Below the pieces are notes generated by a model that saw only the letters and a list, made by a program, of their open reading frames with translations, was not told the origin of the DNA and made no database searches. From the NCBI GenBank assembly GCA_007375645.1, contig VMER01000001.1, forward strand, positions 337,576 to 401,575: DNA of 64,000 bases. The letters are read 5' to 3'. This document shows positions 9,612 through 59,487 of the stretch, piece by piece. Made by a program: the position numbers and the translations under genes. The stretch comes from Parcubacteria group bacterium LiPW_15 (lineage in GTDB: Bacteria > Patescibacteriota > Minisyncoccia > UBA6257 > 2-01-FULL-56-20). Position 1 is the first letter of the stretch, and every line of letters starts with the position of its first letter.

Positions 9612-10079
9612 TTAGCGAGCAAAGTGGGCGAAAGCGCGGTTCGCTTCGGCCATCCTGTGGGTGTCTTGTTTCTTCTTGATAGCGGTGCCTTCGTTTTTGG
9701 AGGCGGCGATTATTTCGTTCGCGAGCTTCTCGGCTATCGGCTTACCCTTTCCGGAACGGGCGGCATCAACCATCCAACGCAAAGCCAAAATGAATTTACG
9801 GGAAGGAGTAACTTCGCGAGGAACCTGGTAGTTCGCGCCACCAACGCGGCGGGAGGCGACTTCTAATATAGGAGAGGCGTTCTCCACGGCTCTTTCAAAA
9901 ACAACTATCGGCTCTTCCTTGGTTATTTCTTTGATTATCGCGAAAGCGTCATAAACATCGCGCTCGGCAACGGATTTCTTTCCGTCACGCATTATATAGT
10001 TAATAAGCCGGCTCACGTCTATGCGGCCATGAACTGTGTCTCCTTTATAGTGCTTCTTGTAAACTCTCTTTTTGCGCAT
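9612..10079 (-). CDS. rpsG: 30S ribosomal protein S7
   Basis: 155 aa; S7 family similarity ([23 protein letters not shown]-like). Confidence 0.95.
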
Positions 10080-10109
10080 TTAATTAAAAATTAGTTATTG
10101 GAAGTTATT

Positions 10110-10535
10110 CTACTTCTTCGCTCCTCCCTTGGCTCTTTTAGCTCCGTACTTGGAGCGCTGTTGCTTTCTTCCTTCCACGCCGGAAGTATCCAAGACTCCG
10201 CGCACAACATGGTAGCGGACACCCGGAAGATCTTTTACGCGGCCTCCGCGAATAACAACGATGGAGTGCTCCTGGAGGTTGTGGCCCTCTCCTCCGATGT
10301 AGGCAGTAGTTTCCATGCCGTTAGTCAAACGAACGCGGCAAACTTTACGCAAAGCGGAGTTCGGTTTCTTCGGAGTGGTGGTGAAAACTTTAAGACATAC
10401 TCCCCTCTTAAATGGAGACGGGGAATTCACGGGCTTATTTTTGAGGTGGTTAAAATAATACGAAAAAGCCGGAGACTTGGTCTTCGTCTTTAGAACTTTC
10501 CTTCCGCGTTTTACGAGCTGATGGATTGTAGGCAT
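10110..10535 (-). CDS. rpsL: 30S ribosomal protein S12
   Basis: 141 aa; [12 protein letters not shown]...[11 protein letters not shown] signature. Confidence 0.95.
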
Positions 10536-10582
10536 GAAAATATCTCTCTAAGGCAAGAGTACTTAGAATAATATCTTGAACG

Positions 10583-10611
10583 ATTTTAAGCAATAGCAGG
10601 CTCAAAGTCAA
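10583..10611 (-). promoter_or_regulatory. putative str-operon promoter (-35 TTGACT, 17 nt spacer, -10 TAAAAT)
   Basis: minus-strand read tccTTGACTttgagcctgctattgctTAAAATcg, about 50 nt upstream of rpsL. Confidence 0.5.
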
Positions 10612-10618
10612 GGATTAC

Positions 10619-10755
10619 GCTCTCTCGTTTTCGGGGACCGGCGTTCAATTTGCTCCTGCGGCAAATTGCCGCCTGTATCTCGGCATTTTGACCCCACCTA
10701 AGACGGGGTTCCTAGCTCAAAATGCCTCCGATAACTCCCCGCGAAACGAGAGAGC
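10619..10755. ncRNA. unassigned structured element (about 137 nt multi-stem fold closed by an 18 bp stem)
   Basis: stem P1 gctctctcgttttcgggg/ccccgcgaaacgagagagc; internal hairpins gcggc-aaatt-gccgc and ggcattttg[acccc..ggggt]caaaatgcc. Confidence 0.35.
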
Positions 10756-10879
10756 TCCATTCGGGTGAAGGGGAAAAAGCACGAAATAGCCTCCTTGGTG
10801 GACGAACATGCCCGAGCTAATCAGGTCGCTACATTTGGGAAGAAAGGGAGATGGCGAGGAATAGCCTCCATTAATTTAG

Positions 10880-10935
10880 AAAAAAAGCCCCCGCTGCCTC
10901 GTCTCGCTAAAGTTCTGCGAAGCGGGTCGGCGGGG
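10880..10935 (-). terminator. intrinsic terminator (long imperfect GC hairpin plus T-run) after CDS 10943..11542
   Basis: ccccgccgacccgc...gcagcggggg followed by cttttttt on the minus strand. Confidence 0.5.
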
Positions 10936-10942
10936 TACAAGA

Positions 10943-11542
10943 TCACTTCTTGGCCGGAATATCTATGACCGTCTCGAAGATGAGCGTGCTGAAAGCACCC
11001 GGCCAGATGCGTTCGGTTGCCACCGGAATTCCCTTTTGGCCAAAGTATTCGAGAGAGATGAAGGGTTCGAATTTTCCGCCTCTTAGCTCCTGCCGAAATA
11101 GCCAGATATCGAAACCGATCCTGCGAAACGGTTCCAGGTCCTGCCCATCCTCGGTCAGCACCGTTAACGAGTACCGCGAGGTTCTTCCCCTCACGAGACG
11201 CCTTGATCGGCCTAAGGCATCGCCTTTTCCTGATTCGCTAAAGGCCAACAAAGCACTAACGCCGGGGCGGACGTAGTACCGTGAACATGTATTCGCGGTG
11301 ATCCATCTGTCGAAGACATGAAAGACGCCGTAGCCAGCTCCGCGAGGATCGTCCATCATACCGAAGCCGCCGATTCCCCGAAGACCGAATATCTCCACTC
11401 CTCTCGGATTGAAGATCGAAAGGTCGTGGAAATACTTTTGCTGATGAACCGCTTCCGCGGCGCTCTCGGGCGCCTCTATCGAAGCACACGACCGGATAAG
11501 GTTCAGGTACGGGATTTCCTTCCCTTTTGTTTTAACCCACAT
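10943..11542 (-). CDS. hypothetical protein on a GC-rich islet
   Basis: 199 aa from the ATG preceded by a GGAAGGAGAG RBS; high GC3. Confidence 0.55.
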   Translation of the reverse strand: MWVKTKGKEIPYLNLIRSCASIEAPESAAEAVHQQKYFHDLSIFNPRGVEIFGLRGIGGFGMMDDPRGAGYGVFHVFDRWITANTCSRYYVRPGVSALLAFSESGKGDALGRSRRLVRGRTSRYSLTVLTEDGQDLEPFRRIGFDIWLFRQELRGGKFEPFISLEYFGQKGIPVATERIWPGAFSTLIFETVIDIPAKK

Positions 11543-11616
11543 CGCACACTCTCCTTCCAAACGACTACCTGAATTAAACTCATTTGAAGTCTTTTTGTAA
11601 ATAATGAAAACTTTGA

Positions 11617-11651
11617 GAAAAAATAAATGGCCCGCGCGTGATGCGCGGGCC
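11617..11651 (-). terminator. intrinsic terminator after CDS 11661..12161
   Basis: ggcccgcgcg-tgat-gcgcgggcc perfect hairpin followed by a T-rich run on the minus strand. Confidence 0.7.
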
Positions 11652-11660
11652 GTCGCTGGT

Positions 11661-12161
11661 CTACTTCTCGATCGGCGGACGGAACATGATTCCCGGAAGG
11701 AGTTGATAGGCGTAGTTGCCCCTCTTCCCGATCCGTTCGACATAACCGGATCGATGCCAGTATGTGAGGACGCTGTACACCGGCGACTTCATGCTCAGAC
11801 CGCTCCGTTCGCCCGCCAAGGTTTCGACCTCGGCAAGTACTTCCGGACCGCGCATGAAACGATGTCTATTGGCGTGAAACACCGTCCAGCACTTGTCGGC
11901 GATGAAAGACAAGGGGCGATGCTTCTCAAGCCTCATCCCCTCGACGATGCGATAGCGGCCAAATCCTACGCGGGCGAAGCAACCTTCCCTGGTCTTGATA
12001 CTCAAGACCTCGGCGATCTTTCGCCTCTTGAGAGAGGTACGCCTCCAAATGTCCTCGACGGAAACCTCGGACTTTCCCTCTCCGGAAAAAAGGTCGATGA
12101 CCCCTTGAACGGTCTGAGTCACGGCCGAAAATGGAATGGCCACGCCTTTTGGTGCCCCCAT
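11661..12161 (-). CDS. hypothetical protein with C-terminal winged-helix-like segment, on a GC-rich islet
   Basis: 166 aa; high GC3; SMKSPVYSVLTYWHRSGYVERIGKRGNYAYQL resembles a wHTH. Confidence 0.55.
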   Translation of the reverse strand: MGAPKGVAIPFSAVTQTVQGVIDLFSGEGKSEVSVEDIWRRTSLKRRKIAEVLSIKTREGCFARVGFGRYRIVEGMRLEKHRPLSFIADKCWTVFHANRHRFMRGPEVLAEVETLAGERSGLSMKSPVYSVLTYWHRSGYVERIGKRGNYAYQLLPGIMFRPPIEK

Positions 12162-12239
12162 CAGCGTTCTCCTTCTTTCGAAAATTTCAAAACCTCCAAG
12201 ACCTGGCTATCTTATACAATAGGCGGCCACAACGGTCAA

Positions 12240-12869
12240 CTATAAACTAAGCCCGGTAAATAAAGTGAATAGAGCGCCGATGATCGGCCGCAATATCGAA
12301 AATCCGAAAAAGATAAAAAGGAAGATCAAAATCATTCCATTCCGTTCCAAGGCCGTCAGAAATTTAAAGGTCCTCTCCCCTTGCGGAAGTATCGCCATCA
12401 AAACCTTCGAGCCATCAAGCGGCGGAATCGGCACCAGGTTAAAAACTCCGAGCGAAACATTCGCAAAAGCTATGCCCGCGAAAAGCGCCGGCAATATATC
12501 GTTCGGCGTCATCCCATAAAGATAACTAAATCTGACCGCGAGCCCAAAGATAAACGCCAAAAGAAAATTACTTAATGGTCCGGCCGCCGCGATCTTTGCC
12601 GCACCCGTGCGCGGATTTTTTAAATTCATCGGGTTATACGGCACGGGCTTCGCCCAACCGAAAAGCACCGGCGAATTTGTAAACACCAAAATGAGCGGCA
12701 AGAGAACCGAACCGAAGATATCAATGTGACTTAGCGGATTCATAGTGAGCCGTCCGGCGTTCCGCGCCGTCGGGTCGCCCAATTTTTCCGCTACAAACCC
12801 GTGCGATACTTCGTGTATCATCACGGAAAATACGAGAACCACCAATCCGAAAAGATGAACCAGATCCAT
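12240..12869 (-). CDS. site-2 protease family (M50) zinc metallopeptidase
   Basis: 209 aa polytopic membrane protein with HEVSHG (HExxH) and NLVPIPPLDG motifs. Confidence 0.85.
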   Translation of the reverse strand: MDLVHLFGLVVLVFSVMIHEVSHGFVAEKLGDPTARNAGRLTMNPLSHIDIFGSVLLPLILVFTNSPVLFGWAKPVPYNPMNLKNPRTGAAKIAAAGPLSNFLLAFIFGLAVRFSYLYGMTPNDILPALFAGIAFANVSLGVFNLVPIPPLDGSKVLMAILPQGERTFKFLTALERNGMILIFLFIFFGFSILRPIIGALFTLFTGLSL

Positions 12870-19435: not shown

Positions 19436-19472
19436 ATTTTAAGGAGTTCCGGCAGAAGCCGGAGATTCAGAA

Positions 19473-19637
19473 GAGTTCATCCCCGAAATAGGCAGTTTGC
19501 CAATTTTGAAAGAGATTTGAGCGAAAAGCGTTTAGCCCGACGAAGAAATAATAGTGTAAACGTTATTACTAGGAGGGATAAGCGCTTTGGAGCCGAATCT
19601 GGTCAAAAGTGGTAATTGGTTATTTCGGGGATGAACT
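19473..19637. repeat. 19 bp perfect inverted repeat (agagttcatccccgaaata / tatttcggggatgaactct) enclosing 127 bp in the scpA-scpB spacer
   Basis: the two IR arms were read directly; the 3' arm overlaps the last codons of scpA. Confidence 0.7.
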
Positions 19638-20333
19638 CTGTATCATTATATCAGAAAAATTGTCCCCTTGCTCCAAACGCACAAGCTGTTCACGGGCAAG
19701 ATGCAGTATGGCCAAAAAGATGACGATAATCTCCGATTTTGTTTTGGCTTCGGAGAGCTTTCCAAGGCTTGTCTCCCCCACCTCCTTCACCCGCGCCACA
19801 ACTTCTCTTATTTTTTCCTCGAGAGATATTATCTTTTCGCGGATAGTCTTGGTTTCTTCCGAAAGCTTCCGGACCGCGTCGGATATGCGCGACAAAGCTC
19901 CGACCAAAGAATCGTTTGTTACCTTTCCCCCGGGATAGAAAACTTTGACCATCTCCAAACTCCCAAGATATTGGCGCGGATGGGAAATGTTTTTGGAAAG
20001 CCAAAGCGTTTCAAAATTCTTTTTGGCCGTTTTAAATTCCTGATAAAGCGCCAGCCTGCGCTCCAAATCTTTTATATCCGCCTCTTCCTCTTCGTTAAGC
20101 GTTAGGTCGGGCAAAAGAGATTTGGATTTTATTAAGATCAGCTTGCTCGCGACGGAAATGAAATCCGCGAGCATCGTAAAATCTATTTTTTCCGCCTGTT
20201 CCAAATATTTCAAAAAATCGTCGGTTACTTCCGCCAAACTTATCTCCGAAACGGGGAGCTTCTTCTCCTCAATAAGCTCCAAAAGCTTTTCTAGGGGTCC
20301 TTGGAACTTCTCGGTTTTGTACTCGTAAGACAT
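19620..20333 (-). CDS. scpA: segregation and condensation protein A
   Basis: 237 aa; ScpA family similarity. Confidence 0.9.
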   Translation of the reverse strand: MSYEYKTEKFQGPLEKLLELIEEKKLPVSEISLAEVTDDFLKYLEQAEKIDFTMLADFISVASKLILIKSKSLLPDLTLNEEEEADIKDLERRLALYQEFKTAKKNFETLWLSKNISHPRQYLGSLEMVKVFYPGGKVTNDSLVGALSRISDAVRKLSEETKTIREKIISLEEKIREVVARVKEVGETSLGKLSEAKTKSEIIVIFLAILHLAREQLVRLEQGDNFSDIMIQSSSPK

Positions 20334-22794: not shown

Positions 22795-23898
22795 ATGGCA
22801 CTGGCTTTATATCGCAAGTATCGCCCCAAAGATCTCGCCTCCTTGGTGGGCCACGAAACCAATGTAGAGGTTTTAAGGAACGCCGCGCGCTTGGGTCGGC
22901 TCGGCCAAAGCTACCTTTTTTACGGGCCCCGGGGAACCGGCAAAACTACGACCGCAAGACTTCTCGCAAAACTTTTAAATTGCGAAAAGCGGGCCAAGGA
23001 CCCGGAATTTAGAAAACTCGGCGAACCCTGCAACGAATGCGATGCCTGCAGAGATATTGATTCTGGCAGCGCCCTGGATGTGATAGAGATCGACGCGGCC
23101 TCCAACCGCGGAATAGACGAAATAAGAAATCTTAAAGAAAATGTCCGCCAAGCCCCAGTTCGCCACGCCAATAAAGTTTATATAATAGACGAGGCACACA
23201 TGTTGACCGGTCCGGCTTTCAATGCGCTCCTCAAAACCCTCGAAGAACCTCCGGCGCATGCCGTCTTTGTTTTGGCCACCACGGAATTCGAAAAGCTTCC
23301 GCCGACCATAACTTCCCGCACCCAACGCTTCCTTTTCAAAAAACTGCCAAAAACCGCGATACTCGAAAAGCTTGAGCGCATAACTAAAGCCGAAAAAATG
23401 GATGTCTCCCCCGACGCCCTGGAACTCATCGCCTCCGCGAGCGAAGGGAGTTTGCGCGACGCCGAATCGCTTTTGGACCAGATCGCCGGCATGGCCAAAA
23501 AAATAGACCTCGACATGGCTGAGCGGGTTATCGGACGGGCGTCTTTAAGCCGGGTGGAAAAAATGTCTTCCCTCGCGCTCTCCGGCGCGTCCAAAGAAGC
23601 GGTAGCTTATATCGCGGAACTAAAAAATGAAGGTTTAAATCTCGTGCAATTCACCCGCGACCTTATCCACTATATAGAAAAAGCTTTGACTCTTTCCCTA
23701 AATCCGGATCTCGAAAAAAATCTTTCCGAAGAGTTTACCGTGGAAGAACTTGGGCGCATGAAAAAGACCGCGAAATTAGCCTCTCCGGCCGCGACTGTAC
23801 CGCTTTTACGATCTCTCATCCGCGCCTACGGCGAAATGCGCTATAGCCCGTTCGCCTCGATTCCCCTGGAACTCGCGCTCTTGGAACCGAAACCGTAG
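22795..23898 (+). CDS. dnaX: DNA polymerase III subunit gamma/tau, short form (domains I-III only)
   Basis: 367 aa; GPRGTGKTT, zinc module CNECDAC, DEAHML. Confidence 0.9.
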   Translation: MALALYRKYRPKDLASLVGHETNVEVLRNAARLGRLGQSYLFYGPRGTGKTTTARLLAKLLNCEKRAKDPEFRKLGEPCNECDACRDIDSGSALDVIEIDAASNRGIDEIRNLKENVRQAPVRHANKVYIIDEAHMLTGPAFNALLKTLEEPPAHAVFVLATTEFEKLPPTITSRTQRFLFKKLPKTAILEKLERITKAEKMDVSPDALELIASASEGSLRDAESLLDQIAGMAKKIDLDMAERVIGRASLSRVEKMSSLALSGASKEAVAYIAELKNEGLNLVQFTRDLIHYIEKALTLSLNPDLEKNLSEEFTVEELGRMKKTAKLASPAATVPLLRSLIRAYGEMRYSPFASIPLELALLEPKP

Positions 23899-35361: not shown

Positions 35362-35381
35362 CCTGCCTGCCGGCAGGCAGG
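35362..35381. repeat. perfect 20 bp palindrome CCTGCCTGCCGGCAGGCAGG (copy 1 of 3)
   Basis: exact match to copies at 51029 and 58962. Confidence 0.9.
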
Positions 35382-43708: not shown

Positions 43709-43889
43709 GGGAGATATCTCACGCGCTCGTTCCACTCGCTTTTCAGAACCCACGGTTCTGAATAATCTCCTCCACGGGGAACCGAGCGCGGTTCCCCGAC
43801 CCCCTCCGCTGTTCGATTCTCCCTTAATCATAGAATTAAATCAACCGACCATAAAGGCCGATTTGATTTAATTTGTGGACCCGGGGAGA
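43709..43889 (+). mobile_element. miniature tRNA-3'-end-associated element, copy A
   Basis: 15 bp direct repeat gtggacccggggaga at 43709..43723 and 43875..43889 (the tRNA-Ala(CGC) 3' end); conserved core at 43768..43823; nested-palindrome hairpin. Confidence 0.55.
43768..43823 (+). repeat. conserved core of the miniature element: TCCTCCACGG-ggaaccgagcgcggttcc-CCGACCCCCTccgctGTTCGATTCTCCC
   Basis: shares CCACGG..G(N)TTCCCCGACCCC..GTyCGAkTC with copies B (57205..57259) and C (50750..50843, minus strand); the last 13 nt are an inverted copy of the tRNA-Ala(CGC) T-arm. Confidence 0.6.
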
Positions 43890-43946
43890 ATCGAACTCCC
43901 GCCTCAGCAATGCGAATGCCGCGTTATGCCACTTAACTACGGGCCC
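43876..43946 (-). tRNA. tRNA-Ala (anticodon CGC), G3:U70, no encoded CCA
   Basis: reverse complement folds as GGGCCCG-TA-GTTA..; anticodon loop TTCGCAT; T-arm GGGAG-TTCGATT-CTCCC. Confidence 0.8.
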
Positions 43947-44976: not shown

Positions 44977-45047
44977 CGGGCTGTAGTATACCGGTAGTAC
45001 ATGCGCTTCGGGTGCGTAAAGACTGGGTTCGATTCCCAGCAGCCCGA
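44977..45047 (+). tRNA. tRNA-Pro (anticodon CGG), no encoded CCA
   Basis: folds as CGGGCTG-TA-GTAT..; anticodon loop TTCGGGT; T-arm CTGGG-TTCGATT-CCCAG. Confidence 0.75.
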
Positions 45048-45248
45048 CAACTACAATTTCATGTTTTGTCGAACCGGCGTCGCCCTTCCCCTGCGGAAGG
45101 GCGCGCCTGTATCTCGGATATAAAAATCCGCCACAACGGCGGAACCGGGCTTTTTATTCCTCCGATGACTTCGCCAAAACATGAAATTTCCGCGGAGACA
45201 AACACACGCGTTCTATGGCATATAAAAAGAATGGGAATCGAACAGCGG

Positions 45249-45647
45249 TTATTTCTTTTGATGTTTCCGCTTATGTAACGCCTTGGATTTTTGGGTCAGA
45301 GCAAAAACCGAAAGAACCATTATATACGCGGCAACGGCTTCCGAAGAAACCTCGTAGGCATCCCCCAGGATAAAAGTGAAGCCCATAAGTATAAGAATGA
45401 TGACGGTCCAGGCAGCCACGAAAAGTTCGCCGGGGTGGCGATCCTCGGCGTGCATATCATACCAACGATCGAATTCTTTTGTGCCCACATACAATCCCAA
45501 AATACCTATATAGATTATGCTCATCGGTCCGATCAAGCGCTCGAAGCGGTTATGCAGAAAAAAATTCGCACAAATGAACATGAGAAATACGTAAGTCCAA
45601 ATGTTCGTAAGAACCCGCCAAATCTTTTCGTCTTTAAATACGCTCAT
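45249..45647 (-). CDS. hypothetical membrane protein
   Basis: 132 aa; 3-4 predicted TM helices. Confidence 0.5.
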   Translation of the reverse strand: MSVFKDEKIWRVLTNIWTYVFLMFICANFFLHNRFERLIGPMSIIYIGILGLYVGTKEFDRWYDMHAEDRHPGELFVAAWTVIILILMGFTFILGDAYEVSSEAVAAYIMVLSVFALTQKSKALHKRKHQKK

Positions 45648-47101
45648 TTCACGTAATGTCTTTTCTTCATTTCTCCTTCGATCCCCGCTTCGAATTCCTC
45701 GGTTTTCTTTTTGGATTTTTCTTTGAGCTCCTCAAGTTGTTTTTCTGAGTAAAGTGCAAGCTCTTTCACCCGCTCTTCCAAATATTCTTTGTCATTCTTT
45801 TTTGGATCATCCAAAACTTCATCGAGAAGCGCCGCGAGTATCTGGCCAACTTTCGGAGAAGGAGCAAGCCCCGCAATGCGCATTACTTCCGATCCGTCTA
45901 CCTTAAGCATTTTGGCCGATACCGGATCGCGCCGCACTTTGTCTATCATGAACTGCAAATGCCTGAGTTTATAAGGCACAGCCTTGGGCACGCCCGACCC
46001 GATGCGATCCGCCTCGCGAACCTTTAAAAGATCGTCTATAGAATCCTCGCCGACACGGGCGATAAAGCGTCTTACCCCGGCTTCGCTTACTTCGCCGACG
46101 TTATAGTAGAACAAATGATAGCGCACCAAGTGCGCGACCTGTTCGGTCAGTTCTTTTGAAAATCGCAATTTATCCATTAGCCCCACGCACATCCTCGCGC
46201 CGATGGAATCATGATTATAAAAAGTGGAATGGAGTCCCTCCCCCTTTTTAGAGCGGGGTTTGCCGACGTCATGAAAGAGTGAGGCTAAGCGGACAGCGAG
46301 CGAATATCCCTGTTTCGCGGAGTAACCCAGAGCCCGCACATTGTGTTCAAAAACCGTATAGATGTGATGGAGGTTTTGGCCCACTCCAAGCCCTTCGCGC
46401 AACTCCGCGCAAACATAACGCAACATGTCCAGTTGTTCCAAAAGCACGATCCCGTCCGCAGCTCTATCGGCCATAATTATCTTCACAAATTCGTCGCGCA
46501 GCCGTTCTTCGGCAATCGCCTCCAAAAGACCTGCCTTCTCTTCTATCGCCCGCCGGGTCGCATAGTCTATTTGAAAATCCAATTCGGTCGCGAACCTGAC
46601 CGCCCTCATCATGCGCAACGCGTCTTCATCAAAGCGGGCCACCGGATTGCCGACGGTACGGATAACTTTTACGCGCAGATCCTCCTGTCCCCCGTAAGGG
46701 TCAATTATCTTTTTGCCTTCCGCGTCCATAGCCATCGCGTTTATCGTGAACGATCGGCGCGAAAGATCTTCCTCCACCGTTTTCGCAAAGCGAACTTCAT
46801 CCGGATGGCGCTTATCCGAATATTTGCCTTCTATTCTATAAGTCGTGACTTCCACTATCTTCAGACGAGGGTCTTCGGATTCGGTTTTTACACCGACCGT
46901 GCCGAATTTGTTTTCATAAACGCTGTCCGGAAAAAGAGCTTGGATCTCCTCCGGCGTGGCGTTCGTGGTTATATCCCAATCTTTCGGTTCTCGGCCGAGC
47001 AAAACATCGCGCACGCAACCGCCCACAAGATATGCCTCGAAACCAGCCTTCTCAAGCGTTATGGCAATGCCTTTTGCTATGTCCGGTACGACATATTTCA
47101 T
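45644..47101 (-). CDS. cca: CCA-adding tRNA nucleotidyltransferase with HD domain
   Basis: 485 aa; GGCVRD..D.D nucleotidyltransferase head and HD motif. Confidence 0.9.
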   Translation of the reverse strand: MKYVVPDIAKGIAITLEKAGFEAYLVGGCVRDVLLGREPKDWDITTNATPEEIQALFPDSVYENKFGTVGVKTESEDPRLKIVEVTTYRIEGKYSDKRHPDEVRFAKTVEEDLSRRSFTINAMAMDAEGKKIIDPYGGQEDLRVKVIRTVGNPVARFDEDALRMMRAVRFATELDFQIDYATRRAIEEKAGLLEAIAEERLRDEFVKIIMADRAADGIVLLEQLDMLRYVCAELREGLGVGQNLHHIYTVFEHNVRALGYSAKQGYSLAVRLASLFHDVGKPRSKKGEGLHSTFYNHDSIGARMCVGLMDKLRFSKELTEQVAHLVRYHLFYYNVGEVSEAGVRRFIARVGEDSIDDLLKVREADRIGSGVPKAVPYKLRHLQFMIDKVRRDPVSAKMLKVDGSEVMRIAGLAPSPKVGQILAALLDEVLDDPKKNDKEYLEERVKELALYSEKQLEELKEKSKKKTEEFEAGIEGEMKKRHYVK

Positions 47102-50414: not shown

Positions 50415-50460
50415 GAGTTTATTTTAACAGAAGTTTAGGCTCTCTTAAAGACGGCGTCTG

Positions 50461-50532
50461 TGGCTGGGGTGAGAATCGGACTCACGACCCGACGCTTATG
50501 AAACGTCTGCTCTACCACTGAGCTACCCAGCC
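50461..50532 (-). tRNA. tRNA-Met/Ile2 (anticodon CAT), elongator type, no encoded CCA
   Basis: reverse complement folds as GGCTGGG-TA-GCTC-AGTGGTA-GAGC..; anticodon loop TTCATAA. Confidence 0.8.
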
Positions 50533-50621
50533 ATTTGAGTGAATCAAATACATTTTTAGCATCAAATCACGTTTTTGACAATCCGCACTTTAGATATATA
50601 ATAACGAAGCAATTAATTACC

Positions 50622-50694
50622 GCGGGAGGATTAGGGAATGGTTTCCCGGGGAGCCCCATAAGCTCTTGAAGCTGGTCCGATTCCAGCTCCCGCA
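50622..50694 (+). ncRNA. non-canonical tRNA-like gene (perfect 7 bp acceptor stem GCGGGAG/CTCCCGC, T-arm GCTGG-TCCGATT-CCAGC, irregular D/anticodon region)
   Basis: 73 nt; acceptor and T-arm fold by hand, but no canonical anticodon arm; its 3' end is the direct-repeat target of element C. Confidence 0.45.
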
Positions 50695-50964
50695 ACAAGA
50701 AACAAAAACACCCCGAGGGGTGTTTTTGTTTTGATGTTGGAATCGGACGTGAAGGGGGTCGGGGAAACGGCGGTTGCTCGCGCAAGTAAACAAACGTCTT
50801 TCCGCCGATAGGCGGGGCCGTGGCGGAAATACTGCAATTGGTAGCGAGGATAAAATGGCATTGAACATTTTAGCCGAGCGAACCAATTGATGGCTTGTCC
50901 TTCAAACCGCGGGGTGTTAGAAAATTCGCAAAGCGAATTTTGTCTGCTTCCAGCTCCCGCAACA
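50681..50964 (-). mobile_element. miniature tRNA-3'-end-associated element, copy C
   Basis: 17 bp direct repeat ttccagctcccgcaaca at 50681..50697 (the tRNA-like 3' end) and 50948..50964; conserved core at 50750..50843 on the minus strand, with a roughly 45 nt expansion of the hairpin; spacer homologous to copy B. Confidence 0.55.
50704..50731. terminator. bidirectional intrinsic terminator / centre of a 22 bp nested palindrome
   Basis: aaaaacaccccgaggggtgttttt. Confidence 0.65.
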
Positions 50965-51028
50965 GCTTCAGTTTTCAATTTCGCGAAGACAGCGTCAACC
51001 GCTTCCAGCGAGCGGTTGCGCCTGAATC

Positions 51029-51048
51029 CCTGCCTGCCGGCAGGCAGG
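51029..51048. repeat. perfect 20 bp palindrome CCTGCCTGCCGGCAGGCAGG (copy 2 of 3)
   Basis: exact match; lies in a roughly 900 bp ORF-poor region. Confidence 0.9.
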
Positions 51049-51201
51049 TCGTAGCAAAAATCTGCCATTCGGCAGAACCAATCTTTTTGCTCCTCCAATG
51101 TCCTCCGCAAAATCGAAAACTTCCGCCGTGGAAGTAAGAGAAAAAAATATACAAAAAAAGCCGGTGTCCGCCACATACGTGGTTTCGTGTCCGGCTGCGC
51201 T

Positions 51202-57144: not shown

Positions 57145-57322
57145 GTCGGCCGGAATCAAACAAAATTTGCTTCTCAAATTTTCTAACACCTTGTGGTTTT
57201 AGTATTTCCACCACGGGGAAACTTCCGTTTCCCCGACCCCTTTCCCGTTCGAGTCCGGCTGGATACAGAGCAACCAAAAAATGCCCGATGGGCATATTTT
57301 GGTTGCTGCGCGGTCGGCCGGA
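57145..57322 (+). mobile_element. miniature tRNA-3'-end-associated element, copy B
   Basis: direct repeat gtcggccgga(N)tc at 57145..57157 and 57313..57325 (inside the tRNA-Asp 3' region); conserved core at 57205..57259; nested palindrome. Confidence 0.55.
57275..57300. terminator. bidirectional intrinsic terminator between element B and tRNA-Asp
   Basis: aaaaaatgcccgatgggcatatttt inside the outer stem gcaaccaaaa/ttttggttgc. Confidence 0.65.
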
Positions 57323-57383
57323 CTCGAACCGGTAACCCCCGCCGTGACAGGGCGGTGCTCTAACCAAATTGAGCTACGACCGC
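57309..57383 (-). tRNA. tRNA-Asp (anticodon GTC), no encoded CCA
   Basis: reverse complement folds as GCGGTCG-TA-GCTC..; anticodon loop CTGTCAC; T-arm CCGG-TTCGAGT-CCGG. Confidence 0.8.
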
Positions 57384-57429: not shown

Positions 57430-59487
57430 CTATCCGATGAGCCTTAGGAATTCCTTTTCGCTTAGGATTTTGACCCCCAGCTCTTTAGCCTTCTTATACT
57501 TACTCCCCGGCTCGGCACCGGCCACGAGATAAGAGGTTTTGGAGCTAACCGATTCGGAAACGTCTCCCCCAAGTTCTCTTATCTTTTGTTTCGCAAGCTC
57601 GCGAGACATGGAATCCATGGAACCGGTGATGACAAAAGAAAGGTCTTTCAGTTTTTCGACTTTCACCGAAGGCGGCGCGAGAACAATCACTACCCCGGCG
57701 GCTTCAAGCTTTCCCAAAAGATGAGTATTCCTTTTTTCCTTGAACCATTCGTAAATGCTTTCGGCGACTTTCGGACCAATATCTTTTATCTCTTGTAATC
57801 GCTCCAGCGAAAGTCCGCCGTAAAAGTTCAAAAATTTGGAAATGCTCAAGCGCCCACTCTTCTTCTCCGGAAATATATTCGCAAGGGTTATCGCAGTTTC
57901 TTCGCCCACATGAATTATTCCTAAGGAGTAAATAAAGCGTGAAAGAGGGACTGATCTTTTCGCTTCGACTTCTTTTATAACATTTTCCGCCGACTTTTCA
58001 CCGAAACGAGGCAGGGCTTCCACATCTCCTTGTTTCAGGGTAAAAATGTCCGCCGCATCGACTATCAAGCCCTCGTCCAATAATCTATCTATTATTTTTG
58101 GACCCAAACCGTCCAAATTAAATCCTCCGCGGGATATAAAATGATAAAGCTGCTCCCTGTGTCGCGCGCCGCAATACTTGTTGGAACATTTATAAGCCAC
58201 CCCGTCACGAATGACCCCGGACCCGTCTACGGGACAGTTCTCCGGCATCTTGAACTTTTTTTCCTTGCCGGTCCGGAACTCCGGCAAAACCTTGGTTATT
58301 TGCGGGATAACGTCTCCGGCCCGGGAAACGATAACTGTGTCGCCAACCCTTACCCCAAGCCGTTCTATCTCATCCGCATTATGAAGGCTCGCGTGGGTTA
58401 TGGTCACGCCGCCCACGTTCACCGGACGCATCACCGCGACCGGCGTCAGCGCCCCAGTACGACCGACCTGAACCTCTATCGCCTCCACAATGGTCGTGGC
58501 TTCCCTCGGAGAAAACTTGTAGGCGATTCCCGCGCGCGGAGTTTTGCCGATTATCCCCGCTTCTTCGTATGTGGCGTTGTCGTTTATGGAAATAACTATG
58601 CCGTCTATTTCATAAGCAAGGCGCTCTCTCATTTTTAGAACGTCTTTATGAAATTCGAATATCTCTTCTATATTTCTCGCAACTATGCCGTGCGGATTGG
58701 TTTTGAGCCCGTATTTATTGAGTTCGGCGTATTCCTCGGATTTTGTTCTGTATCCGGGAGTAACAACATCGTAGGCGTAAAAATCCAATTTCCTTGAGGC
58801 GGTTATCTTCGGATCCAATTGCCGTATGGAACCGGCGGCGACATTGCGAGGATTCGCATAGGGTTTTTCTCCTTTTTTCTCCTGCTCGCGGTTCAGCCTC
58901 GCAAATTCTTTTTTGGTCAGGAAGGTTTCCCCGCGAACGATGAGGCGCTTGGGATATCCGCCCTGCCTGCCGGCAGGCAGGTCCCCTCTCTCGAGTCTTA
59001 AGGGTATCGCGTCAATAGTTTTCAAATTTTCCGTGACATCTTCGCCGATCATGCCGTCTCCGCGCGTGGACCCGGAAACAAAGAGGCCATCTTCGTAGAT
59101 AAGCTCCATCGCGAGACCGTCCATTTTTAGATCGCAATAAAATCCGTTTTTTGCGAAACTAGTTTTGGGTCCGAAATAATTTTTTAGACGCGTGAGCCAT
59201 TCCTGAATATCCTGCGGGGAAAATGCGTCGTTTAGGGAGATCATCCGCGTTCCGTGCCTGACTTTTTTAAAAGCGGAAAGCGGCTTTCCCCCAACCCGTT
59301 GAGTCGGTGAATCTTTGGCAATAAATTCCGGATAGCGCGATTCCAGATCAAAAAGCTCCTTCTTTAAAGAGTCCAGGGCCCCTTCGGAAATAAGAGATTT
59401 ATCCAAAACATGGTACGCGTAGCGGTACTTATTTATTTCCGTCTTTAGTTTTTCGATACGCTTCTTGGCCTCATCCTTAGCCGTCAT
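57430..59487 (-). CDS. ligA: NAD-dependent DNA ligase
   Basis: 685 aa; adenylation KxDG region, OB fold, Zn finger, HhH and BRCT; carries an in-frame 7 aa insertion LPAGRQG encoded by the 20 bp palindrome. Confidence 0.95.
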   Translation of the reverse strand: MTAKDEAKKRIEKLKTEINKYRYAYHVLDKSLISEGALDSLKKELFDLESRYPEFIAKDSPTQRVGGKPLSAFKKVRHGTRMISLNDAFSPQDIQEWLTRLKNYFGPKTSFAKNGFYCDLKMDGLAMELIYEDGLFVSGSTRGDGMIGEDVTENLKTIDAIPLRLERGDLPAGRQGGYPKRLIVRGETFLTKKEFARLNREQEKKGEKPYANPRNVAAGSIRQLDPKITASRKLDFYAYDVVTPGYRTKSEEYAELNKYGLKTNPHGIVARNIEEIFEFHKDVLKMRERLAYEIDGIVISINDNATYEEAGIIGKTPRAGIAYKFSPREATTIVEAIEVQVGRTGALTPVAVMRPVNVGGVTITHASLHNADEIERLGVRVGDTVIVSRAGDVIPQITKVLPEFRTGKEKKFKMPENCPVDGSGVIRDGVAYKCSNKYCGARHREQLYHFISRGGFNLDGLGPKIIDRLLDEGLIVDAADIFTLKQGDVEALPRFGEKSAENVIKEVEAKRSVPLSRFIYSLGIIHVGEETAITLANIFPEKKSGRLSISKFLNFYGGLSLERLQEIKDIGPKVAESIYEWFKEKRNTHLLGKLEAAGVVIVLAPPSVKVEKLKDLSFVITGSMDSMSRELAKQKIRELGGDVSESVSSKTSYLVAGAEPGSKYKKAKELGVKILSEKEFLRLIG
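58962..58981. repeat. perfect 20 bp palindrome CCTGCCTGCCGGCAGGCAGG (copy 3 of 3), inside the ligA coding sequence
   Basis: exact match; ligA remains a continuous ORF across it. Confidence 0.9.

Follow-up and report, generated by a model that had tools for sequence, protein, structure and literature searches.

The genomes of CPR bacteria (Patescibacteria) are small and thought to be poor in repeats, and, to our knowledge, almost nothing is known about their non-coding elements. Among the structured sequences known from bacteria, the attC sites of integrons are 57–141 nt long and contain the core sites R'' (RYYYAAC) and R' (GTTRRRY), and the REP consensus of E. coli has a GTAG tag at the 5' side of a hairpin. 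The bcr1 repeat was treated by Okstad (2004) and Klevan (2007) and is reviewed in PMC3184786. In the Bacillus cereus group, bcr1 is a cruciform-like element of about 155 bp with two stem-loops, in which compensatory changes are seen; it varies between strains and is transcribed (PMC3184786). The GTAG-tagged REP and REPIN elements are mobilised by RAYT transposases, which are enzymes of the Y1 HUH type (PMC3733652; PMC3116915).

We analyzed a stretch of 64,000 nt (the window) from Parcubacteria group bacterium LiPW_15, whose relatives carry the name Candidatus Liptonbacteria. A structured segment upstream of rpsL in this window (El1, 10619..10755, + strand) belongs to a family of Y-shaped interspersed repeats, about 135–160 nt in length, that had not been described before.

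The element upstream of rpsL and its family

El1 adopts a three-way junction, as indicated by its predicted folds, a covariance-model score of 154.6 bits and counts of base pairs. The closing stem, P1 (10619–10637 with 10737–10755), has 19 bp and a single bulged C; an earlier note on this DNA had recognized the stem, but as one of 18 bp. P2 (10640–10673) consists of GGCG/CGCC, continued by CAAUUUGCU/GGCAAAUUG, and a CCUGC loop. P3 (10676–10733) starts with UAUC/GAUA and, after an internal loop, contains GGCAUUUUGA/UCAAAAUGCC around a CCCC/GGGG hairpin, together with an 8-nt bulge. The stem ggcattttga/tcaaaatgcc around cccc..gggg, which had also been noticed before, corresponds to P3 of the family. 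The proposed hairpin gcggc-aaatt-gccgc, on the other hand, is a palindrome in the sequence but is absent from both the minimum-energy fold and the conserved fold. The structure is bordered by unpaired TAC (10616–10618) and TCC (10756–10758).

The RNA fold of the + strand has a predicted energy of −66.1 kcal/mol (z = −7.56), and none of 200 dinucleotide-preserving shuffles (mean −37.5 ± 3.8 kcal/mol) is as stable. The corresponding values are −69.3 kcal/mol (z = −6.82) for the − strand and −40.7 kcal/mol (z = −7.64) with DNA parameters. El1 is highly structured (z = −7.6) and non-coding, as had been supposed. It does not resemble an intrinsic terminator, since the sequence continues with UCCAUUC on the + strand and GUAAUCC on the − strand, and a terminator scan gave no result there.

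The order of features on the − strand is M50 peptidase (12869–12240), ORF A (12161–11661), ORF B (11542–10943), El1 and rpsL. ORF A has a weak AbiEi-like wHTH match, and a search of 5.8 billion proteins gave just one homolog cluster for ORF B. A terminator (11651–11629, − strand) lies between the two ORFs. A second, intrinsic terminator, read from the sequence (10935–10880, − strand; a GC hairpin with T7), directly follows the stop codon of the orphan ORF B (10943–11542, − strand) and points toward the 3' side of El1, at the end of a spacer of about 125 nt. A purine-rich part of this spacer next to El1 (termed ext, 10759..10797, + strand) is a 71%-identical direct repeat of spacer 10835–10869. 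At the other end, the −35 box (10611–10606) of the rpsL promoter, TTGACT-17-TAAAAT (10611–10583, − strand), sits 7 nt from the 5' end of El1. This promoter is the sole sigma-70-like site within 10000–12500. The earlier note's placement of the element, between the terminator of ORF B and the −35 box of rpsL, is thus confirmed. As that note also held, the element is not the leader of the rpsL mRNA, given that the promoter is downstream of it and that the strand conserved in the element is the one antisense to rpsL.

A second copy, El2, was reached by a long-range inverted-repeat scan, which flagged 45055–45188. A third sequence, E_L, is a 133-nt segment found at the position of El1 in the locus L001 of a closely related strain; it also forms a three-way junction, with the + flanks TAC and TCC. 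El1 and El2 have the strings ACCGGCG, CCTGCGG (loop), CGCCTGTATCTCGG and CCTCCGATRAC in common, and their stems are wholly different. A covariance model built from El1, El2 and E_L (R1) was run over the window with filters off. Four members were detected, all on the + strand: El1 (10616–10758, 154.6 bits), El2 (45052–45191, 135.1 bits; z = −7.4), El3 (56–195, 98.3 bits, E = 6e-25; z = −6.9) and El4 (50967–51124, 47.8 bits, E = 5e-11). Every other match scored ≤19 bits. P3 of El4 is interrupted by a 20-nt palindrome, CCTGCCTGCCGGCAGGCAGG, at 51029–51048. No more copies were found in 19 kb of flanking genome. Outside this genome, an El1 ortholog (132 bits) is located upstream of rpsL in L114, a relative at about 85% DNA identity, and R1 detected a member 6 nt after the fusA stop codon of a Vogelbacteria-like MAG (L003:6201–6359 = L144:12153–12311). 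The L144 copy is divergent, with the flanks AACTAC and TCC and z = −8.5. The z values of individually folded members, El4 left out, range from −6.9 to −8.5.

The members have a common architecture: a stem of ~19 bp, with a single irregularity, closes the structure, and of the two enclosed hairpins one has a CCNGC loop and the other is longer and bulged. The copies agree in their junction and loop motifs and in their flanks (5'-YTAC, TCC-3') but not in their stems; paralogs are only about 55–60% identical. In a three-sequence alignment, 91.8% of cells are paired and 27 of the 50 pairs are changed on both sides (slid controls, 38–52%); with seven sequences, these values are 92.3% and 38 of 50 (slid controls, 40–52%). 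The slid controls are the fairer measure, because the members number only seven or eight, come from two lineages and are in several cases related by descent, so that shuffle controls overstate the significance. Structured homologs with covarying stems are thus present in relatives; their absence was what the earlier note had named as speaking against the element.

The strongly covarying consensus of the family is new to Rfam. With Rfam 15, only 10 tRNAs were recognized in the whole window at gathering thresholds. The comparison with Rfam by Infernal that had been suggested for El1 yielded no matching family, either at the gathering threshold or at E≤10, and the matches obtained at E≤10 around El1, El2, El4 and the L144 copy were at chance level (10–19 bits). 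A strict family pattern gave 0 matches in viral contigs, and blastn gave none in phage and plasmid collections. A pattern scan of metagenomes returned 44 loci, of which one (L114) is real and 43 are chance matches; its pattern is too narrow for divergent members (E_L and the L144 copy, for example). A scan for hairpins with CCNGC loops was too crude, as known members escaped it. Neither the 43 chance-pattern loci nor 524 kb of other loci contained anything credible by R1.

A mini three-way junction of 100 nt was observed at the stop codon of a metallo-beta-lactamase-fold gene (L145:6753–6852 = L147:2406–2505, L149:610–709). It scores 26 bits (E = 1e-5) with the model R2 and has the ACGG...CCUG junction of the family. 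It may be a shortened relative.

Sites and strain variation of the copies

The 5' end of the element (+ orientation) is within 8 nt of a neighbouring feature at every locus. El2 starts 3 nt after the 3' end of the co-oriented tRNA-Pro gene (44977–45048), and the corresponding neighbour of the L144 copy is the fusA stop codon. El4 begins directly downstream of a 17-nt duplicate (50949–50965) of the 3' end of a tRNA-like gene. For El1 and El3, the neighbours are the opposite-strand −35 hexamers of the rpsL and rplC promoters; El3 follows the terminator of a 125-aa orphan ORF, and 8 nt separate it from the −35 box of TTGACA-17-TAACAT (− strand), the promoter of the rplC operon. The 5' flank varies between TTAC, CTAC, TTCC and CTTC. 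The 3' flank is always TCC(A/G) and is succeeded by a poorly conserved, purine-rich spacer of 30–125 nt, beyond which, in the window, a convergent orphan ORF has its terminator. No 3' extension common to all copies was recognized in an alignment, and the spacer differs much even between orthologs. For none of the copies did a scan (El1) or a reading of the flanks reveal a promoter or terminator belonging to the element itself. A conserved partner protein was not found either, as the ORFs beside the four copies are mutually unrelated and have no Pfam match above threshold. At their far ends, the orphan islets have ordinary promoters or terminators, and another element-like structure was not found there.

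Several other features were observed near tRNA genes. The tRNA-Pro(cgg) gene has no encoded CCA end, and the gene of a CCA-adding enzyme (PolyA_pol/HD, 45644–47101) is about 600 nt away; the intervening DNA contains El2 and an ORF for a small membrane protein. The tRNA-like gene upstream of El4 (50622–50693, + strand; anticodon CAU) is followed by a terminator. It was missed by ARAGORN and at the Rfam gathering score, and the tRNA-Sec model gives it 33.5 bits (E = 9e-5). The 17-nt duplicate of its 3' end, TTCCAGCTCCCGCAACA, is about 250 nt downstream and resembles the att repeats of a decayed integration. Inverted, partly degenerate 3' portions of tRNAs are located at 57241–57335, 43811–43896 and 50459–50697, beside tRNA-Asp, tRNA-Ala(cgc) and tRNA-Met; these may be convergent tRNA-like fragments or integration scars.

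The palindrome within El4 also occurs elsewhere. Perfect 20-nt copies of CCTGCCTGCCGGCAGGCAGG are present at 35362–35381, 51029–51048 and 58962–58981 of the window and at L001:2270–2289. Inside P3 of El4, and in L001 between the element and the rpsL −35 box, it follows AATC; its other sites are about 28 nt from tRNA-Gln and within a DNA ligase ORF (57430–59487). It appears to be a separate REP-like mini-element. Two − strand ORFs are separated by a near-perfect long hairpin of 168 nt (19472–19639; −84.7 kcal/mol, z = −11.3). The hairpin has outer arms of 26 nt with 88% complementarity, and its sequence is unrelated to the three-way-junction family. It may be another structured repeat or MITE.

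The rpsL site differs between strains. L001, to which L002 is 99.97% identical, contains an intact E_L and lacks El1. An extra 20-nt insertion is present there between the element and the −35 box, and the promoter, which is kept in both L001 and L114, is unchanged. L001 is 99.5% identical to the window upstream of the element and 96.2% downstream of it. This step, between the M50-to-ORF B side and the rpsL–fusA side (window 10612–10808), falls exactly at the element and indicates a recombination breakpoint there. In the window and in L114, El1 begins precisely where E_L begins in L001, after GGATTAC, and is followed by a spacer and a 5'-truncated remnant of E_L. The remnant comprises 22 nt in the window (10808..10829, + strand), which represent the 3' arm of P1 as judged from alignments, the L114 sequence and BLAST, and about 62 nt in L114. 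The presence of El1 together with E_L remnants of unequal length implies that the site was struck more than once, and that it recombines. The ORF B terminator is kept in L114, where a different orphan ORF is located upstream of it.

In relatives with 84–88% identical S12, the gene immediately upstream of rpsL is that of the M50 peptidase, and rplC is immediately preceded by that of S10. Searches with R1 and R2 detected no member within 10 kb of rpsL in six such genomes. The M50–rpsL junction of the window holds the ORF A/B islet and El1, and the S10–rplC junction holds ORFs of 329 and 125 aa and El3. The two orphan-gene islets, 10943–12161 and 278–1779 (the latter between rpsJ and rplC), split gene pairs that are adjacent in the relatives. 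In the Vogelbacteria lineage, the post-fusA element of L144 is absent from eight loci with 97% identical EF-G. Presence or absence of the element thus differs between close strains in two lineages. Members are located at the borders of lineage-specific orphan islets that break the conserved str–S10 cluster, as well as beside tRNA 3' ends, and the family is therefore usable as a marker of genome plasticity in CPR bacteria.

Candidate explanations

Tentatively, and at somewhat less than an even chance, we put first the explanation that these structured interspersed repeats form a new family of the bcr1/REP/MITE kind that spreads or recombines as a folded single strand. The element would be a small, non-autonomous mobile or recombinogenic DNA repeat, the folded single strand of which (the + strand in the window) would be recognized by its shape by an enzyme supplied in trans. 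The leading candidate for this enzyme would be an HUH Y1 transposase of the IS200/RAYT type. Like the enzyme, mobility as single-stranded DNA and use by the host are presumed here.

Four copies in 64 kb, covarying stems and strain-level replacement count in favor of mobile DNA, as do other small palindromic insertions in the genome. Such long stems, with pairs that are nearly all Watson-Crick, are more typical of DNA palindromes, and the patchy, polymorphic distribution with nested or adjacent insertions is likewise counted for DNA. P2 of the L144 copy, the only copy in which a U tract follows P2, is terminator-like and would truncate a sense transcript inside the element, which again speaks for DNA. 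Against mobility, the paralogs, at only about 55–60% identity, give no sign of a recent burst, and neither target-site duplications nor conserved terminal inverted repeats were found: the flanks match as a direct repeat (TCC...TCC) in El3 alone, and the P1 arms differ completely.

A Y1 enzyme is suggested because the structure has a conserved tetranucleotide on its 5' side in the folding strand, like TTAC for IS608, because re-use of one TTAC would explain how El1 landed at the 5' edge of E_L, and because PF01797 genes are present in related Vogelbacteria loci. In 83 kb of this genome (a contig of 481,644 bp), no match to the PF01797 Y1 transposase was found, and the window and L127/L128 contain no Y1 transposase genes. 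A weak tblastn match to such a transposase at 22795–23064 was rejected, since the gene is that of DnaX. With respect to the ribosomal protein operons, the elements of the window and of L144 are oriented in opposite directions, and this speaks against a simple lagging-strand bias like that of IS608.

Two PF01797 Y1 (IS200/RAYT-like) transposase genes were observed in the Vogelbacteria locus L145 (13822–14502 and 19402–20073; also in L146 and L147), inserted in the fusA–tuf gap and after rplB. Short inverted repeats or hairpins (GGGGTCAGCCAC/GTGGCTGACCCC; AAGGTCGGACCTT) border each of the two genes, and the three-way-junction element is absent from their flanks.

Between the window and L114, the identity of the element is 92.4%, compared to 83.5% for the rpsL coding sequence, 84.1% for the promoter and 5' UTR, and only 64% for the ext spacer. 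Since the El1 ortholog exceeds both the coding sequence and the spacer, this comparison points to selection on the resident copy rather than neutral decay. Quasi-palindrome correction could keep stems without selection, but not loops. As conservation in place is unusually high, the host may now be using copies that have inserted; they could, for instance, punctuate the interval from one terminator to the following promoter. If the family is mobile, it points to a mobilizing enzyme that recognizes structure.

The + orientation has 9 G-U pairs against 2 A-C mismatches (with the poorly aligned El4 excluded), and of the four stem substitutions that distinguish L114 from the window, three are changes from G-U to A-U on the + strand. 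These counts favor the + strand as the likely folded strand. The energies are ambiguous in this respect, as the − strand folds 3–4 kcal/mol more stably, opposite to the G-U/A-C count. The G-U bias fits RNA and single-stranded DNA alike and cannot tell the two apart.

That the copies function as RNA, in the form of multi-copy structured RNAs, is possible, though we consider it unlikely. Such RNAs would act in trans, with the conserved unpaired C-rich motifs of the + strand (CCUCC, UCC and CCNGC) pairing with Shine-Dalgarno sequences, or the conserved unpaired GGA/GGAGG motifs of the opposite strand could titrate a CsrA-like factor; alternatively, the element would be a cis-acting 3'-end structure released from upstream transcripts. 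Strong covariation, conserved unpaired nucleotides and the 9 to 2 excess of G-U over A-C on one strand are consistent with RNA, as is the higher conservation of the El1 ortholog (92%) than of the rpsL coding sequence (83.5%). El2 and the L144 copy follow tRNA-Pro and the fusA stop at 3 and 6 nt, respectively, and are on the same strand as these genes. Both are almost certainly transcribed, judging from an upstream gene only 3–6 nt away on the same strand and from the lack of a terminator between fusA and the L144 copy. The possible short relative, L145:6753–6852, also begins at a stop codon. However, no copy was found to have a promoter or terminator of its own, and El1 and El3, both upstream of promoters, are antisense to every neighbouring gene. 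The U tract after P2 of the L144 copy would end an RNA within the element, near-perfect helices of 19 bp are unusual among bacterial RNAs, the patchy, strain-variable distribution is unlike that of a housekeeping RNA, and no Rfam family matches. If RNA is correct, the copies constitute a new class of multi-copy structured RNA.

A related reading, to which we also give a doubtful rating, is that the copies are not selfish DNA and represent, in CPR bacteria, a new class of functional elements defined by their structure, being either a multi-copy regulatory RNA with C-rich, anti-Shine-Dalgarno-like loops or a folded single-strand recombination site of a new kind, recognized by its shape only, that delimits inserted orphan islets. 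Either would explain why the resident copy is better conserved than the rpsL coding sequence.

A structure-specific recombination site like the attC of integrons, which would end inserted cassettes of orphan ORFs, appears improbable. Its appeal lies in a structure kept without sequence, a strand-specific signal, an irregularity at a fixed position of P1 and a length near the attC range. Moreover, the 3' sides of the window copies face the terminators of orphan ORFs without homolog or Pfam family, the relatives have M50–rpsL and S10–rplC adjacent and lack the islets, and L114 keeps the element and the terminator with a different upstream ORF. The core sites RYYYAAC/GTTRRRY are absent, however, and P1 has 5'-GUUU...AAAC-3', which is of opposite polarity. 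Arrays and nearby integrases are lacking too, a second site is missing from the far ends of the islets, and the arrival of El1 was independent of that of the ORF A/B islet.

A single-locus regulator of the str operon, such as the rpsL-specific small RNA or protein-binding DNA or RNA structure implied by the earlier note, is highly improbable: El1 is kept 7 nt from the rpsL −35 box in L114 and El3 is 8 nt from that of rplC, but the window has four copies in unrelated contexts, others follow tRNA-Pro, a tRNA fragment or fusA, a 96–99%-identical strain (L001) has El1 swapped for a different member plus a 20-nt insertion with the promoter unchanged, and six related genomes have no such element upstream of rpsL. 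For annotation, this means that the copy number of structures near ribosomal protein promoters needs to be checked before they are labeled as leaders or regulators.

Other candidates were rejected: hammerhead, twister or other ribozymes and CRISPR repeats on sequence or structure, a tRNA-like element for lack of a T-loop, a retron ncRNA for lack of an RT, and bridge RNA or omega RNA for lack of a recombinase, TnpB or IscB nearby.

Comparison with described repeats

The likeness to attC sites consists in function in a folded single strand, which for the family would apply if it is mobile as proposed, in the conservation of structure and not of sequence, and in the location at the 3' ends of ORFs. 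Unlike attC, the family has no R''/R' core sites, arrays or nearby IntI. The attC core motifs are absent on either strand from the P1 arms GCTCTCTCGTTTTCGGGG and CCCCGCGAAACGAGAGAGC, and ORF-attC arrays beside intI were not found, the copies being single and dispersed among housekeeping genes, with no integrase among the neighbouring genes.

The ends of transposons of the IS200/IS605 group (IS608 type), and the derivatives of these transposons that lack ORFs, resemble the family in having a TTAC-type tetranucleotide 5' on the folding strand, hairpins and no target duplication. A second insertion at the same TTAC would explain why El1 starts where E_L starts. The ends of IS608 are, however, mutually unpaired, and their sequence is conserved between copies. 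No TnpA was found with the family, and a replication-orientation bias is inconsistent between the window and L144.

The family and the REP elements have an unpaired tetranucleotide at one end (CTAC/TTAC on the + strand of the family is GTAG/GTAA on the other strand), and a 3-nt tail at the other end, with G-T pairs tolerated (PMC3733652). In both, abundance varies between strains and many copies are located just downstream of genes. REPs are simple hairpins of 20–40 bp, whereas the family forms a three-way junction of 135–160 nt. The polarity of the tag is mirrored: on the − strand, the tag of the family (GTAG, GTAA, GGAA or GAAG) is located 3' of the structure, not 5'. No RAYT flanked by family elements was seen in the window, L127/L128 or L145.

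The closest analogue appears to be bcr1. There is no sequence similarity between the two, and the host of bcr1 belongs to another phylum. bcr1 has 5-bp direct repeats from target-site duplication, whereas the family has none and instead the flanks 5'-YTAC and TCC-3', and copies of bcr1 are far more alike than the family paralogs, which are about 55–60% identical. Both, however, are interspersed and intergenic and of similar size, with a closing helix and two independent stem-loops; in both, the distribution is not conserved between related strains and compensatory changes keep the fold. The multiple intergenic copies in the window (four in 64 kb, plus one remnant) are as expected of bcr1-like or MITE-like repeats. 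The family belongs to the broad kind of structured interspersed bacterial repeats and to none of the named families.
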